Positions 24,600 through 48,524 of a stretch of 64,000 nucleotides of DNA are shown here, piece after piece. Below the pieces are notes generated by a model that made no database searches, was not told the DNA's origin, and worked only from the letters and a program-made list of their open reading frames with translations. Both the position numbers and the translations under genes were made by a program. This stretch comes from an uncultured Chloroflexia bacterium. Lineage in GTDB: Bacteria; Chloroflexota; Dehalococcoidia; DSTF01; JALHUB01. The DNA lies in contig OY969814.1 of the NCBI GenBank assembly GCA_963703345.1, forward strand, positions 992,001 through 1,056,000. Direction: 5' to 3'. The first letter of the stretch is position 1, and every line of letters starts with the position of its first letter.

Positions 24600-24676
24600 C
24601 GGGGTGTAGCGCAGCCCGGTAGCGCACCTGAATGGGGTTCAGGAGGTCGTGGGTTCGAATCCCACCGCCCCGACCA
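24600..24676 (+). tRNA. tRNA-Pro(GGG), intact; integration site
   Basis: Cloverleaf with CGGGGTG/CGCCCCG acceptor, CCTGA/TCAGG anticodon stem with GGG, GTTCGAATC T-loop, encoded CCA. Confidence 0.97.
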
Positions 24677-24717
24677 GTTTCCCTACAAACTGGCACAGAA
24701 CAGCCCATTATCGGGGT

Positions 24718-24750
24718 GGAAACCCGCCGAAAAGGCGGGTTTCCTGCTTT
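24718..24750 (+). terminator. Terminator downstream of tRNA-Pro
   Basis: GGAAACCCGCC-GAAAA-GGCGGGTTTCC followed by TGCTTTT. Confidence 0.7.
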
Positions 24751-24921
24751 TCTGGGGCGTTTTGGGGGCTCTCACCCATCCATCGTAAACGCCCCAGATG
24801 CGCGCGGTGAGCCGGTTACGGTACCTGAAACGGTGTTCTATTTTGCAACAGTCTTAGGGCATTCAGGCGAACAGCGATTTTGACAGGGCGGCAATTAACG
24901 GTGATCTGGGAGGAAGCTAGC

Positions 24922-26013
24922 ATGAAGATGAGAAAACGAAACCCAAGGTGGCAGGACATGGACAAGAAGAACACCCCGTTCAACCGCCTGATCGACGACT
25001 TCCTGCTGGCCAAACGCTCGGCCGGCTGCTCGGAGAAGACGGTCTCCTGGTACCGCGACAACATCCTGAGCTATGTGCGCTTTCTCGAGGGCGAGGGCAA
25101 CCCGGCCGTGCTGAAGAGCTTCTCAGCCGACAGCGTGCGCCGCTACACGGTCCACCTGCAGGGACGTAGGGTGAAGTTCGAAAACAATCCCCTGCGGCGG
25201 ACGGTCGGCGAGGCGCTGTCCAGCCAGACCGTCTTCGGCTACGTCGCCACCCTCGGCGTCTTCGCCACCTGGCTGGCTGCCGAGGGCTACACGCGTAGCA
25301 ATCTCCTGCAGGGGGTACCGCGGCCGCGGAAACGGAAGACGGCGGTCAGCGGTCTCAGCCGGGAGGAGATCGAGAGCCTTCTGGCCCGGGTTCCCAAGCA
25401 TACGCTGGTCGGTACCCGTGACCGGGCGATCCTGATAACCCTCCTGGACTGCGGCCTCCGCGCCTCCGAGCTCTGCGACCTGACGCTGAACGAGGCCCAC
25501 ATCGAGGGGGGCTACCTGAAGGTGCTGGGCAAGGGGAACAAGGAGCGGATAGTGCCGGTCGGCGCCGCCGCCTGCCGGGCGATCCTCCGCTACCGTGACT
25601 TCTTTCGCCGGGATCAGGGCAAGCCGGCGCCCAACCTCTTTCTGTCCGTTCACGGCGGCAGATTGAGCCCGGAGGCGCTCCGTCTAATGGTGCAGAGATG
25701 GGCCAAGTCGGCGGGAATCAAAGGTGCGACCGTGCACAAGCTCCGTCACACCTTCGCCCTCCAGTACCTGATGGCCGGCGGCGATGCCTTCAGCCTGCAG
25801 AAGATCCTCGGCCATACGACGATGGACATGACGCGGAACTACGTCAACATACTGCCGGCGCAGCTCGTGGAGAAGCACCGCCTTCACTCGCCGATGGACC
25901 GGATGACGATCGGCTTTCCCTCGACAAAGGGGCGAACGGACGGCAGGGACGAGTGTGGGCGTTTCGCGTCCTCCCTCCCCCGTCGCCGTAGCAGCGGTCG
26001 CGGTCGCGGATGA
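24922..26013 (+). CDS. Tyrosine recombinase/integrase
   Basis: GLRASE, GKGNKER, HKLRHT, LGH and RNY catalytic motifs; GGAGGA RBS. The last codons run into an IS remnant. Confidence 0.9.
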   Translation: MKMRKRNPRWQDMDKKNTPFNRLIDDFLLAKRSAGCSEKTVSWYRDNILSYVRFLEGEGNPAVLKSFSADSVRRYTVHLQGRRVKFENNPLRRTVGEALSSQTVFGYVATLGVFATWLAAEGYTRSNLLQGVPRPRKRKTAVSGLSREEIESLLARVPKHTLVGTRDRAILITLLDCGLRASELCDLTLNEAHIEGGYLKVLGKGNKERIVPVGAAACRAILRYRDFFRRDQGKPAPNLFLSVHGGRLSPEALRLMVQRWAKSAGIKGATVHKLRHTFALQYLMAGGDAFSLQKILGHTTMDMTRNYVNILPAQLVEKHRLHSPMDRMTIGFPSTKGRTDGRDECGRFASSLPRRRSSGRGRG

Positions 26014-26792
26014 GGTAGCGCGGCTGCTCGCCCCAAGGCGTCGCCGCGATCAGCTGGCGCCAGACCCACTCAGCGGTCGGATGAGCAGTCACGTTCAGGT
26101 GAACCAAACTCCGCCGGTGATGGGCAATGAACAAGAACACATACAAGGTCTTGAAGGTCACGGTCTGGACCGTGAAGAAGTCAGCGGCCCAGATGTGCGG
26201 TGCATGATTGCGGAGGAAGGTGCGCCAGGATTGGGACGGCGGCCGCCGCAGGGCGGAGCGGCGGTAGCAGCGGACAGATTCGGCACTGACCTGGAAGCCG
26301 AGCTTGGCGAGCTCGCCGCGGATGCGCACGCTTCCCCAGCGCGGGTTCTCCCTCGCCAGCCGCCGGATCAACTCCCTCACCTCAGTAGGGACAGGCGGCC
26401 TTCCCGGACCCCGATGCTGTCTGCTCCTCCAGGTCCAGTACTGTCGCCAGGCTTTGCGCTGCCACCGGACTACGGTGTCCGGCTGCACGATGACCAAGGT
26501 CCTCCGCCAATCAGACCAGAGGCGCGAGAGCCAGGACCAGAACAGACGGTCAGTCGCCCTCAACCTCGGCCGGCGAGATTGGCGGGAGAGGACGGCGAGC
26601 TGCTGGCGAAGGGCGATGTTCTCAAGCACGAGACACTGCCGCGAACGCAGGGTGCTGCGCAGGAGGGAGCAGAGGAGGAGGAGATATGCGATCAAGGACG
26701 GACCTCCCTGAGGGCAGAGTGCCTCAAGGCTGGTCCACTCACATCACAAGGTCAACCCTCTCTAGATACGGATGAGATTCTTGGCTCCCACA
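25984..26792 (-). mobile_element. Truncated IS (integrase-core/rve transposase, IS481-like)
   Basis: ORF from 26695 closely matches 62535-63566 but breaks after RDRDRCYG. One terminal repeat at 26764-26792 ending ACA. Confidence 0.85.
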
Positions 26793-26793
26793 G

Positions 26794-27273
26794 GTGACGA
26801 TACCCGAAGCGAGGTCGGGGGGACGCGAGGTATGGGGCTACCCTAAGTTCCTGACGCAGATACCGAGCGACGTCGCCGACAAGCAGTTCAAGTTCGCGGT
26901 GCTGGACCCCGATTCCGGCGAGCCCATCGTCGACGTAAAGGGAGAGATGGGACGCGGCCTCTCGGTGGGCGCGTTCAACATGATCACGTTCAGCAACCAC
27001 GACGACAAGATCCTGCGGACGGTGGTGGAAGCGGAGGGCAAGCTCAGACTCTCCGGCTGCAAGGGCATCGAGGTGAAGGTCGCGTTGACCAGCCACCGGA
27101 TGGCGGAGAGCCTGAGGGCGCTGGGGCTGGAGACGGCCAAGCCGTTCGGCATTATGAGCTCCGATTACATGCGGACGAAGCTGAACCCGGGAATACCCGT
27201 CGCGGAGTACAAGACGCCGGAACTGCCGTATCGCTACGCCGAGGAGCTGGAGTTCCTCAAGAGCAGGGCGTAG
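26794..27273 (+). pseudogene. Acetoacetate-decarboxylase-family gene, 5' truncated by the IS
   Basis: GREVWGYPK motif only about 10 codons from the IS end, so the N-terminal part is missing. Confidence 0.65.
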
Positions 27274-27384
27274 GGACTTCGGAGACGAACCACCAGCGCC
27301 GCGACTATAGCACTGCCTTTTCCGCCCGTCAACGCTCGTTCTGGCGCGGCACTATGTCCTCTCTGTATCCTTACCCTGCTATGT

Positions 27385-27535
27385 TAAAGGTCAGCACAGC
27401 GAAGCGGGCTGACCCTACCATGTCCTGGCTGTGTGCCTTTGATCCGACTTGTCGCCTGTTCGCTGTGCTCACGGGGCTTGACCTGATAGGGGCCCGTCTT
27501 CGACCCGAGAGAGGCTAGTCAGCCCCTGAGACTGC
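27385..27535 (+). ncRNA. Predicted IS110 bridge RNA (target- and donor-binding loops)
   Basis: Stems 27393-27414/27451-27469 and 27468-27482/27518-27530 enclose loops that match the insertion site and the element ends. Transcript ends are approximate. Confidence 0.75.
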
Positions 27536-27553
27536 GCTCGGAGGGAGGCATAG

Positions 27554-28615
27554 ATGATCACGATTGGGGTTGACGCCCACAAGCGAATGCATGTCGCTCT
27601 GGCACTCGATGATGCTGGGCAGGAGCTCGGCCACTGGCGCGGCGCCAACAGCGCCGTGGGCTGGCGGAGCCTGGCCCAGTGGGCAAGTGAACTGGGGTGT
27701 CAGCGGCGGTGGGCAATCGAAGGCGCTTGGAACTACGGCCGGGGCTTAGCGCAACAGCTGGTGACGGCAGGGGAGACGGTGTACGAGGTCAACCCGCGCT
27801 GGACCGCCCTGGGCCGACGGAGCGCCCGAAAGCCTGGCAAGACGGACAGGTTGGACGCGCACGCCGTGGCGCTTCTGGCCCGACGGGAGGCGTCCACTCT
27901 GCCGCGTGTCTCGCCGGAAGATGACACCGCTATCCTCGCCTTGCTCACGACAGAGCGCGAGGCGGCGCTTGGCGAGGCAACGCGCCTTGGCAACCAGATT
28001 CACGCCCTTCTGATGCAGCTTAACCCCGAATACGATGGTCACCTGCCCAACCTCCGCTCCAAGGCAGGCCTCGATGCACTGGAGAGCTACGCCTCGCCCA
28101 GCGGCTGCTTGCTGCAAGACGAGCGGGCGGCAGCCGTGCGAAGGCTAGCCAAACGTCTACGGCTGGCTCTTAGTCAGGCAAAGGAACTGGCCCGACAGAT
28201 CGCAGCGCATGCCGAGGCTGGCTTCTCGCCTCTAACTCGGTTGTGTGGTGTCAATCTCCTCACTGCCGGCATGCTGGCCGGTATTCTCGGCCCGGGGCGT
28301 GGGTTCTCTACTGATGCCGAACTGGCCGCCTATGCAGGCGCTGCGGCGCTTGAGGCTTCTTCCGCTGGACTTACTCGTCATCGTCTGAATCGCGGCGGCA
28401 ATCGGCGGCTCAACTCCATCCTCTATTGGATCGCGCTAACCCAGGCCCATTATTCGCCTGAGGCACGCGCCTATCTTGATCGCCGAGTTTCCGAGGGGAA
28501 GAGCCGACGAGAGGCCATTCGTGCTCTGAAGCGCTTCATCGTTCGCGCTATTTGGCGGCTCTGGCAGGAGTGCGAGGCCAGTTCTATCAAGCCGCGGGTC
28601 GAGAATGCCGCCTGA
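27554..28615 (+). CDS. IS110 family DEDD recombinase/transposase
   Basis: IGVDAHK, AIEG, GKTDRLDA, SSAG...RLNRGGNRRLN, RALKR. Confidence 0.93.
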   Translation: MITIGVDAHKRMHVALALDDAGQELGHWRGANSAVGWRSLAQWASELGCQRRWAIEGAWNYGRGLAQQLVTAGETVYEVNPRWTALGRRSARKPGKTDRLDAHAVALLARREASTLPRVSPEDDTAILALLTTEREAALGEATRLGNQIHALLMQLNPEYDGHLPNLRSKAGLDALESYASPSGCLLQDERAAAVRRLAKRLRLALSQAKELARQIAAHAEAGFSPLTRLCGVNLLTAGMLAGILGPGRGFSTDAELAAYAGAAALEASSAGLTRHRLNRGGNRRLNSILYWIALTQAHYSPEARAYLDRRVSEGKSRREAIRALKRFIVRAIWRLWQECEASSIKPRVENAA

Positions 28616-28728
28616 TCTTGTACATAGGAGCGTCGGATCGTGTCTGCTGGCCGAGACCGTCAAGCTGAGACAAGTTACAATGAAGCGTCGCGGCTTCGTA
28701 GACGGTGAGATTGGACGGCTAAAGCCAG

Positions 28729-30524: not shown

Positions 30525-30762
30525 GAGTCTCGGCCACGAGCACGCATGAATGCGGTCTTGGAGCGGGACTCGATATCCGTGGCCCACACGATGCACGCTT
30601 AGTGTGCGTTCCTGCCGACGCCAGAGCGTCGCTGCCGTCAGCCGTGGAGGAAAGCGATGCCCGACCTTTTCTCGCCCGCCTTGTGAGATTCAACGGCGTG
30701 GAGCAAGGCGGCACGGGCGGCGTTTGCAGAACTACCCCGGCATACCGAGCACGAGAGTTCCT

Positions 30763-32757: not shown

Positions 32758-33144
32758 TCACCAAGGCCACCACCGTCGAACAAGGCCCGGCGGCGACGGC
32801 GCGTGTGGCGGTGACACATGGCCCGGCGGCGACACCTGGCCCGGTGCCGACACTTGGCCCGGCGATGACACATGGCCCGGCGGTGACACTTGGCCCGGCG
32901 GTGACACTTGGCCCGGCGATGACACATGGCCCGGCGGCGACAGATGGCCCGGCGGCGACACTTGGCCCGGCGATGACACATGGCCCGGCGGCGACACATG
33001 ACCCATCTGAGCTGCTGCGTTCCCCGTGGGCCCATTTAAGGAGGGCACGATTATCGCCATTGCCACCGTGCCAACCAGTGCCGCGAGGACGAGCGCAACC
33101 ACCACGAGGAGCCTAGCTGGGATCCGAAAAGCGGATAACTTCAT
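32758..33144 (-). CDS. Small exported protein with 11 G(H/Q)VS(P/S)P repeats
   Basis: N-terminal hydrophobic helix, repeat tract, RRWWPW end; same strand as and just upstream of the ligase-like gene. Confidence 0.7.
   Translation of the reverse strand: MKLSAFRIPARLLVVVALVLAALVGTVAMAIIVPSLNGPTGNAAAQMGHVSPPGHVSSPGQVSPPGHLSPPGHVSSPGQVSPPGQVSPPGHVSSPGQVSAPGQVSPPGHVSPPHAPSPPGLVRRWWPW
32807..33003. repeat. 18-bp tandem repeat, about 11 copies
   Basis: Unit approximately GACAC(A/T)TGGCCCGGCG(G/A)(T/C). Confidence 0.95.
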
Positions 33145-33408
33145 GGCGCGACCTTTCTGTCGGCGGCGATGCCATTGGGCGAGGAGTTCTATGGATGAGC
33201 CACCAGCAGCGAAAGTGTAGCATAGGTTAGGGGATTGTCAAGCAGCGATATTCATCGTCCTCCGCACAGGAATCGGGGAATCGGGCCGAATTCGCAGGCT
33301 AGTCGGAGTCTATGCAAACACCATGGGGACTTAGTGTCGGGTCCAAGGGTTCTTGCGCGCTCGCCAATGGCGTGAGATCCGAGGAGTGACCGCGGCGCGG
33401 GGGCAAGG

Positions 33409-46968: not shown

Positions 46969-47015
46969 TTGCATGTCATCGGAATGTCAAATATAGTTTG
47001 ACCTATGAGTGACAT
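46969..47015 (+). promoter_or_regulatory. Promoter with overlapping inverted-repeat operator for the abiE pair
   Basis: TTGCAT-N17-TATAGT. TGTCA/TGAC half-sites flank the -10. ATG is 7 nt after the -10 (leaderless). Confidence 0.6.
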
Positions 47016-47643
47016 CAATGCCGCATCGCGCACCCGCCGACCTGCTTCCCAACCGGATCGCGCCCGACTCTTCGATATCGCTTCAGAGCAGGGTGGCTAC
47101 TTCACGGCTGAGCAAGCCCGGGTTTCTGGTTTTAGCCGATCACTTGTCTCGCATCACGTGAAGAGCGGCCGGTTCATCAGAGTACGTCGGGGACTGTATC
47201 GCTTTCGTGAGTATCCGGCGTCGCCGCGTGAGCACGTGCTCGCCGCGTGGCTCGCAGTAGGGAAGGACGTAGCCGTCGTCTCGCACGAAAGCGCACTTGA
47301 CCTGCTCGACCTCAGCGACGTGATACCGGATGCGGTACACCTTACTGTTCCTCGGTCGCGGCGCAACGTCCTCACGCTCCCCGGTGTGAAGGTCCACACC
47401 ACTGCTCGATCACCAAGGTCGGAAGACGTTGTCGTGCGCGATGGTATGGCCATCACCTCGGCCACGCGCAGCATCCTCGACGCAGCCGAGATGGGGACAG
47501 CACCGGAGCAGCTTGAGATGGCTGTCATTCAGGCGATTGAGCGCGGCCTGGCCACCCCGCGACAACTGCGGCAGGATGCCGTAGCGCGCGGACGGCGAGT
47601 GGCAACACTGATCGAGGAAGCGCTTCGCAGGTTTCGGCAATGA
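47005..47643 (+). CDS. Type IV TA antitoxin, AbiEi family
   Basis: ASEQGGYFT, RVRRGLYR, VSHESAL. Confidence 0.85.
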   Translation: MSDINAASRTRRPASQPDRARLFDIASEQGGYFTAEQARVSGFSRSLVSHHVKSGRFIRVRRGLYRFREYPASPREHVLAAWLAVGKDVAVVSHESALDLLDLSDVIPDAVHLTVPRSRRNVLTLPGVKVHTTARSPRSEDVVVRDGMAITSATRSILDAAEMGTAPEQLEMAVIQAIERGLATPRQLRQDAVARGRRVATLIEEALRRFRQ

Positions 47644-48524
47644 AATACGCCACTCCCGGCGCATTCCGTAGGGCTCTCGAACAGTGACTCCTGACGATGG
47701 CCAGGGAGACAGATGTCCCACTGATGCGGCTGCGCAAGCTCGTTGTCTTCGACCGCTTGATGGCGCGCCTGGTGGTCGTGGCTCCGAACCGCTGGGTCGT
47801 CAAGGGTGCGGCGGCCCTCCTCTTTCGCCTGGGAGCCAGGTCTCGCACCACGAAAGACCTCGATCTCGGGCGCCAAGATAACGAGGAGGCGGCAACGGCC
47901 GACTTTCTTGCAGCACAGTCGCTCGATCTTGGTGACCACTTCACGTTTGCCATCGAGCGCACGAAGAAGCTGGACGCGATGCTGGAAGGTGTCGCGGTGC
48001 GGTACCACGTTGTCGCAGAGTTCGGCGGGCGCGTGTTTGAGGACGTGACGGTCGACGTCGGCTTCGGGGATCCCGTCGTCGCTGATCCAGAGCTCGTGCG
48101 CGGACCAGATCTACGGAGCTTCGCGGATATCCCTCCCGCCGAAGTGCCGGCGTTGCCTCTGGAACAGCATGTCGCCGAGAAGATTCATGCCTACACCCGG
48201 AGCTACGTCGGCGGCCGCCCGAGCACCCGTGTCAAGGACCTTCTCGACCTCGCCATGATGGGGTCGCTCTTCAGCTTCCAGGCTGGCCGCCTGCGGCGAG
48301 CCCTTGAGGCCACGTTTGCTGCTCGTGATACCCATCTGCTGCCATCTGTGCTTCCTGCGCCACCGCCCCAGTGGGGTGTTGCGTACCGAAGGACGGCTAC
48401 CGAGGTCGGTTTGGACTCTGACATGTCGATGGGGTACGAGCAGGCGGCGGCGTTTCTCAATCCGATCTTGGCGGGGACAACTCCATCTGATGCCCGATGG
48501 GATCCCGTGCAGCGTACCTGGTAG
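47640..48524 (+). pseudogene. AbiEii-family nucleotidyltransferase toxin with an early in-frame TGA
   Basis: ATGA-coupled start MKYATPGAFRRALEQ*LLTMAR with TGA at 47685-47687; KGAAAL, RTTKDLD, AEKIHA, STRVKDL. Confidence 0.8.

Follow-up and report, generated by a model that had tools for sequence, protein, structure and literature searches.

An IS110 element with a predicted bridge RNA, probably guided into the spacer of a host palindrome with one base shared at the crossover

Introduction

In IS621, top-strand cleavage follows position 9; once the top strands have been exchanged, the right guides pair with the incoming positions 8 and 9 and the handshake bases with positions 6 and 7 (PMC11208158). 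Our own reading of the bottom-strand numbering in that paper gives a 4-nt stagger, in agreement with PMC13626964, which expects a bottom strand that is unligated and mismatched. The DNA of an uncultured Chloroflexota analyzed in this study (64,000 nucleotides; hereafter, the window) contains an element for which the initial annotation proposed a bridge RNA, four guides, and a GTC core. The locus raises three questions: where the element begins and ends, which bases its target and donor share, and what kind of site its guides select.

Results

Identity and copy number of the element

Judged by guide–junction covariation, protein domains, and a consensus RNA fold, 27360–28634 is a real bridge-RNA element of the IS110 group of the IS110 family with four readable guides, as initially annotated (Table 1). 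The guide segments quoted at that time (27417–27424, 27441–27448, 27486–27493, and 27508–27514) were confirmed letter for letter, as were the 353-residue ORF and the two promoter-like hexamers. The left end is 194 bp long and the right end 19 bp. Long left and short right noncoding ends are a trait of the IS110 group, as is the lack of a multibase target duplication, and the empty alleles described below show one shared base. Positions 27359 and 28634 are the same shared C, which leaves a one-base ambiguity in the placement of the ends. The element occurs once in its own 2.28-Mb genome, and no second copy was found elsewhere in that genome. The homologue set comprises at least 12 genome loci, mostly from Chloroflexota or its subgroups, at least 60 metagenome loci, and a further 30 from relatives. 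A junction parser applied to loci L001–L102 returned 51 left ends with guides (L019 counted twice).

Table 1. Features of the element and of the neighboring host palindromes (positions in the window)
Feature	Positions	Strand	Remarks
Left target, left half of the split host palindrome	27350..27359	+	Left target 27351–27359 (IS621 positions 1–9); target core 27358–27359
IS110 element	27360..28634	+	1,275 bp; based on empty alleles, other insertions, and the family register
Right donor, positions 10–14	27360..27364	+	Complement of 27508–27512; conserved element start in homologues
−10-like hexamer of the predicted circle-junction promoter	27366..27371	+	
Target-binding stem–loop of the predicted bridge RNA	27394..27468	+	Consensus fold with compensatory changes
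Left target guide (9 nt)	27417..27425	+	Covaries with the 9 nt preceding the element
Right target guide	27441..27448	+	27441–27445 complement the right target; 27446–27448 complement the donor-derived triplet at the right junction
Donor-binding stem–loop of the predicted bridge RNA	27473..27527	+	Consensus fold with compensatory changes
Left donor guide (8 nt)	27486..27493	+	Matches 28624–28631
Right donor guide	27508..27515	+	27508–27512 complement the right donor; 27513–27514 complement the target-derived core at the left junction
IS110 recombinase, 353 aa	27554..28615	+	D7/E56/D98/D101 and serine motif at 269–270 present
−35-like hexamer in the 19-bp right end	28618..28623	+	
Left donor (28624–28631) and donor triplet (28632–28634; donor core 28633–28634)	28624..28634	+	Triplet conserved across elements with differing targets and covaries with the right target guide; 28634 is also the end of another insertion
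Right target (28635–28639) and right palindrome arm (28640–28642)	28635..28642	+	
Unoccupied host palindrome, next in the array	30587..30604	.	Same family as the split site
Unoccupied host palindrome	33319..33336	.	Same family as the split site

Junction register

The two junctions were compared in 24 unique elements having both ends and a typical right end (L024, L028, and L030 were left out). Position 9 is the same at both junctions in all 24, position 8 in two (it differs in the other 22), and the next position in 15. The shared base is usually C, with T in L007 and L018 and G in L027, L032, and L042. These switches occur jointly in both junctions and in both right guides, and the variants fall on three separate branches of a quick tree.

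Contigs of runs X7 and X4 carry the empty allele: they match the window up to 27359, after which the right target and arm follow directly; the X7 piece aligns over 34 letters with two differences. Another X7 contig tracks the element to 28634 and continues into a different target, and contigs of X3 and X5 share the window from 27350 on, with different DNA upstream. The site that is occupied in L013 is empty in the genome of the present copy (C1:1,900,716; flanks 79% and 83% identical) and contains no GTC triplet. A 14/14 match to the guides of this copy exists unoccupied at one site in its own genome, as counted by mismatch matching, which may miss weaker sites. Registers with two or three extra target bases gave no genomic match within two mismatches. 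A flank search among 40 relatives found no empty allele; G002 shares the upstream gene and diverges before the site. The boundaries are 27359/27360 on the left and 28634/28635 on the right, with one shared base, and the GTC belongs to the right end of the element. With the element at 27360–28634, the target core is therefore CC, the donor core is TC, and 17 bp separate the promoter-like hexamers.

The initial annotation had proposed that a GTC core of 3 nt is duplicated at the two ends, that the target measures 13 nt, and that the junction promoter has 18-bp spacing. GTC is indeed present at both junctions of this copy and of L014, but these are the only 2 of the 24 elements in which all three bases agree in that register, and the left GTC is one base out of the register of the family. 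A GTC core is almost certainly wrong, because the empty alleles, which have one more base than it predicts, and the 24 two-ended homologues place the junction one base further right. Moreover, its target has 38 genomic matches at two mismatches and none better, and the spacing of the host palindromes described below is N12, not N11. An empty allele, or copies with other boundaries, had been named beforehand as what would refute the initial annotation, and for the core such evidence was found. The reconstructed target and donor were not confirmed, as the empty alleles pass from 27359 directly into the right target, and the N18 spacing becomes 17 when the ends are joined.

Some homologues have atypical ends. 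The right end of L005 reads left donor, triplet, right donor, a second left-donor-like copy, and then target; it appears to be a remnant resembling a donor junction, and this order fits the corrected register. L050 has a short duplication at its right junction. In L024, L028, L030, L039, and L062, the donor triplet does not follow the left donor, as if the ends had been joined via a partial match. At L019:275–430, there is a second left end with a near-complete bridge RNA and no transposase; it follows another site half and precedes the full element by ~1 kb.

Covariation of the guides with the junctions

As read from the aligned homologues, the guides covary with the target and donor junctions, a pattern whose absence had been named as refuting the initial annotation. 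The left target guide agrees with the 9 nt before the element at 0.85 in register and at 0.21–0.24 when shifted by 1–2 nt (41 unique pairs, leaving out L011, whose parse is ambiguous). Among 29 distinct left target guides, 224 of 261 positions match (shuffled mean 105.6, maximum 146 in 20,000 shuffles), and for the right target 5-mer, 73 of 90 positions match in 18 guides (shuffled mean 31.0, maximum 51; rows L005, both L019, L024, L028, L030, and L050 were dropped), although these shuffle tests overstate the agreement because related elements share sequence and are not independent. In this copy, the left target guide matches 27351–27359 at 8/9 positions. The segment first assigned to it, 27417–27424, is present, but the guide is 9 nt long and extends to 27425. 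Likewise, the right guide described as longer consists of 5 nt for the true right target and 3 nt matching the donor-derived GTC at the right junction. The pairing partners of the latter (27446–27448) are the core base at position 9 and, in a handshake-like manner, positions 8 and 7.

The right donor guide matches the left junction at position 9 in 21/21 elements and at position 8 in 19/21 (8.0 expected). For the right target guide and the right junction, position 8 agrees in 17/18. Position 9 of the left guide matches in only 22/29 (17.5 expected), which suggests that it may not pair. In 23 of 29 elements, the left donor guide and the left donor have the same sequence, and in three more (the subgroup of this copy) they differ by one G/A; guide and donor change together in two variants. 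Compared with IS621, this guide is displaced by 2 nt away from the cut; it ends 3 nt short of the cut and omits the core. Position 9 of the left donor guide was considered as a core-pairing base and was rejected, as it showed no covariation with the core.

Predicted bridge RNA and circle-junction promoter

The RNA alignment included 27 of 35 distinct RNA regions, and a fourth helix was added by hand. The consensus fold consists of two stem–loops, each with an internal loop and an inner hairpin. Over 30 pairs in 27 homologues, 95.2% of the 810 cells are paired, and 19 of the 30 pairs show two-sided changes; the check by folding and covariation suggested in the initial annotation thus came out in favor of the bridge RNA. 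None of 500 shuffles reached this level, and controls with slid pairings gave 39–48%. The single-sequence fold of 27392–27531 had a z score of −2.16, and that of 27356–27556 alone was uninformative (z score of −0.70). The guide register is fixed because the two loops are pseudosymmetric. A search of Rfam gave no match to the bridge RNA region. In the left end of L021, the 5′ half of the target-binding loop is tandemly duplicated, with slightly different guides.

Joining the ends places the two hexamers 17 bp apart, and 17 is the best spacing in 17 of 26 elements. Neither the circle junction nor a bridge RNA transcript was seen in the eight runs examined as contigs, among which the sole RNA run covered 32 letters of the window, within the transposase gene.

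Recombinase and state of this copy

The 353-residue protein contains the DEDD_Tnp_IS110 (PF01548) and Transposase_20 (PF02371) domains and scores 167 bits against NF033542 (cut-off 140). A RuvC-like DEDD domain and a Tnp domain with the conserved serine (S269/S270) were both found. Its relatives of known structure, IS621 and ISCro4, are distant (E values of 1.6e-6 and 5e-6).

The protein had been described as probably intact. The catalytic D7/E56/D98/D101 and the serine motif are present, but this copy carries three private changes, D157N, R250G, and P265A, at sites conserved in 61/64, 57/58, and 55/57 homologues, respectively. The changes are absent from every homologue, including L013 and L014 at 89–90% identity, and in the alignment with IS621 and ISCro4, R250 and P265 fall on conserved residues. 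The total number of departures at conserved residues is five, which is mid-range among the homologues. Intactness is doubtful because the element is single-copy and the three private changes fall on near-invariant residues, and the copy may be inactive.

Host palindromes and their arrays

The target belongs to a family of repeated host palindromes, a feature missed in the earlier reading from sequence only. The element interrupts a CAC-N12-GTG palindrome within its 6-bp spacer, directly behind the fourth spacer base. In the genome of this copy, the form with 5-bp arms occurs seven times at N12 and 0–2 times at the other spacings from 6 to 19, and the degenerate form occurs 31 times at N12 and 2–13 times at the others. 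Fifteen of the 21 strong sites lie <10 kb from another (null mean 3.4, maximum 14 in 10,000). The set of 110 distinct sites has symmetric arms, whose letters are partly fixed by the search pattern, and a low-information 6-bp center. Most of the palindromes lie between genes and delimit small clusters of unrelated genes in islands, several of which are near tRNA genes. The site pattern matches in 35 of 41 relatives, with few matches to the reversed pattern; other site patterns match in 22/101 genomes of the class and 18/201 of the phylum, a patchy distribution.

Ordered CAC-N12-GTG arrays with distinct 6-bp spacers were observed at G000:C1:1,890,557–1,939,591 (L123–L125), in the window (30587 and 33319), and on contigs C15, C20, and C43 of G036 (L161–L163). 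Three spacers occur in the same order in the island of the window and in the island at 1.89–1.94 Mb. The three G036 contigs share an ordered series of spacers with different cargo, and several homology blocks end at the sites. These arrays divide gene modules next to a dedicated tyrosine recombinase family (described below) and resemble a system for cassette exchange whose sites are heterospecific. Genes for a primase-polymerase, a small terminase, and a ParB-methylase are also found in the largest array.

In the window, 24600–26790 contains tRNA-Pro followed by a tyrosine integrase (24880–26013) and an insertion-sequence fragment, which truncates the 5′ end of an acetoacetate-decarboxylase-like gene at 26794. 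A 30-bp repeat at ~26763–26794 was considered as a cassette site and proved to be the end of this fragment. At 32758–33144 (minus strand), a small ORF without a Pfam match encodes proline-rich repeats of six residues in tandem, and an AbiEi/AbiEii type IV toxin–antitoxin pair lies in the island at 47005–48521.

The elements at palindrome sites form one branch of 21 rows (support 86; three label changes versus 14 when shuffled, in a quick tree), and elements of the other branches have other targets. L002, from another branch, occupies a perfect palindrome of a different kind, whose 7-bp arms flank 5 nt. The 11 two-ended elements of the palindrome branch have both arms, and 6 of their 11 spacers are also found among 72 free spacer types. 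As regards a possible direct reading of the arms, both arms are present in five of six clade elements with 2–3 guide mismatches, small numbers in which the guides may have drifted after insertion; for noncoding matches in the genome of this copy, both arms are present in 2/5 at two mismatches and 3/21 at three.

Link to a tyrosine recombinase

Tyrosine-recombinase sites such as loxP and dif consist of inverted arms around a variable spacer of 6–8 bp. The palindromes fit this layout, with inverted arms and a variable 6-bp spacer. A family of tyrosine recombinases of 310 residues is present in 22 of the 41 genomes. Among 30 loci fetched, 25 copies have an intact 5′ end, and in 15 of these a site (≤1 mismatch) lies within 150 bp upstream (background 1.8%). 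Some site-bearing genomes, for example, G016 and G019, gave no match to this recombinase at an E value of 1e-30. Observations relating to crossover in the spacer are that homology breaks at the sites and that a module lies between half-matching sites. In L176:430–1520, compared with L178:1350–1520, a metallo-β-lactamase-fold gene is located between two half-matching sites before the recombinase, where the relative has a single site; this layout is consistent with insertion by crossover in the spacer.

Other enzymes and site classes were considered and rejected. Host XerC/XerD and the integrase adjacent to tRNA-Pro were set aside as enzymes for the palindromes, since none of the five other tyrosine recombinases has a site upstream and the island integrases are only 25–30% identical to each other. 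The palindromes do not correspond to XerC/XerD dif or pdif sites, as their arms are symmetric, their distribution is patchy, and the linked enzyme is neither XerC nor XerD, and they are unlike the predicted dif of Dehalococcoides (as given in PMC3025954). A loose scan for canonical dif returned 62 weak matches and no clear candidate. The integron system (IntI and attC) was also rejected, the linked enzyme scoring 36.6 bits with TIGR02249 (cut-off 265).

Discussion

We propose that the predicted two-loop bridge RNA of this IS110 element probably directs the recombinase to a host palindrome, likely a cassette site of a tyrosine recombinase, for insertion into its 6-bp spacer, and that only one base is shared at the crossover. 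By analogy with IS621, both junctions would be cut in the top strand behind position 9 and the ends joined to form a circle, so that the −35/−10 promoter with its 17-bp spacing would arise. The covariation shows that the target loop matches 9 nt to the left and 5 nt to the right of the cut and that the donor loop matches 5 nt to the right and the 8-nt left donor set 2 nt back. In the junction sequences, position 9 is common to target and donor and position 8 differs, each right-hand guide fitting position 8 of the other partner. Because position 8 differs and each right guide matches the base of its partner, position 8 may be a third handshake base, which would pair only after top-strand exchange. 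The bottom strand would then be repaired or copied from the joined top strand, and both junctions would therefore keep top-strand letters. Reactions dominated by the top strand have been described for CazIS110-1 (10.1101/2025.10.25.684509) and for the excision of IS621 (10.64898/2026.08.31.748434). One subclade sits in CAC-N12-GTG palindromes, with guides that match different spacers. If the palindromes are recombination sites in accessory islands, insertion into them would spare genes.

Two alternatives bear on separate parts of this proposal. Plain IS621 chemistry might operate, with a core nominally of 2 nt in which a mismatch at position 8 is simply tolerated, a bulged pairing in place of an offset donor guide, and matched cores performing as well or better. 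The first core base of IS621 is indeed less conserved, with GT, AT, and TT cores working (PMC11208158), and mismatches next to the core on the unligated bottom strand are expected in IS621 products (PMC13626964). However, the difference at position 8 in 22/24 elements is accompanied by right guides tuned to the base of the partner (19/21 and 17/18), which makes the mismatch look selected rather than tolerated, and the left donor guide covers the core in IS621 (PMC11208160) but not here; we consider this explanation unlikely. The palindromes, in turn, could serve a DNA-binding regulator as operators or the recombinase as sites of autoregulation, the element targeting a repeated intergenic motif as IS621 targets REP. 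They are symmetric, short, and intergenic, and the recombinase-proximal site is just downstream of a −35-like hexamer. Such a role is nevertheless quite improbable in view of the spacers that recur in fixed order with different cargo between them, the homology between arrays that ends at sites, the gene module between two half-matching sites before the recombinase where a relative has one, and the same left flank joined to different right flanks at a site.

Insertion into likely cassette sites with one shared base, the reading that we prefer, can be extended to a wider and more tentative one. Possibly, though this is less likely than not, the clade consists of bridge recombinases that need only one shared base (C, T, or G) between any target and donor, have an out-of-register donor guide, and hunt the crossover sites of an ordered cassette-exchange system. 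The RNA would read the variable spacer, the protein (or a bound tyrosine recombinase) would be responsible for the constant arms, and the guide would be retuned for each spacer type.

The element resembles IS621 and ISCro4/IS622 (PMC11208160, PMC11208158, and 10.1101/2025.05.14.653916; PDB IDs: 8wt6 and 9t56) in its DEDD and serine recombinase, in the long left end with a two-loop RNA, in having four guides in the same order and with the same strand logic, and in the handshake-type matches and the predicted junction promoter. In contrast to these systems, the protein similarity is only distant, there is no CT core, and position 8 differs between target and donor; the IS621 rule of an identical dinucleotide core at both ends does not hold here. 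IS621 includes the core in all four guides (PMC11208160), whereas the left donor guide here is set 2 nt back and omits it, and the target is a recombinase-linked palindrome, not REP. CazIS110-1 (10.1101/2025.10.25.684509) and ISEc21 (PMC11187229) are also IS110-group elements with an upstream guide RNA. The top-strand-dominated excision and integration of the former and the lack of target duplication in the latter fit the junction pattern observed here, but their targets differ, and the available texts describe no systematic mismatch at position 8 and no offset donor guide.

Insertion at recombination sites has other precedents. The IS1111-attC group (ISKpn4 and ISPst6; PMC11187229) consists of RNA-guided DEDD elements that target the recombination sites of gene cassettes. 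Those elements have a downstream RNA, subterminal repeats, and a folded attC as the target, whereas the IS110-group element described here splits a short duplex-type palindrome. In the IS1202 family, ISAjo2 homes to the tyrosine-recombinase sites that separate gene modules in Acinetobacter dif modules (PMC10132070). It uses a DDE enzyme, inserts 5 bp beside the site with a 5-bp duplication, and does so at sites of the host XerC/D; here, a predicted RNA-guided insertion occurs inside the spacer, the arms are symmetric, and the recombinase family is a separate one. ISPpu10 (10.64898/2026.03.19.712850) is a precedent for a layer of specificity beyond guide pairing, provided there by a target stem–loop; in the present elements, the palindrome arms that lie beyond the guides are conserved and might act as such a layer. 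The literature searched, consisting of texts and part of the supplements, contains no paper on one-base cores, on a donor guide that is offset, or on this family of palindromes.

The corrected register is of practical importance, as target and donor would both be wrong in any construct designed from the GTC model. Matched dinucleotide cores are the basis of bridge editing with IS621 and IS622, and a natural family with a one-base core (C, T, or G) would loosen this rule. Because the natural junctions keep top-strand letters at the mismatched core position, they would also permit a direct test of the open question of whether the recombinase exchanges both strands or the top strand only. The palindromes point to a module-shuffling system in uncultured Chloroflexota, of which we found no description in the literature searched, and the element is a further, RNA-guided case of an insertion sequence homing to what are likely cassette recombination sites.
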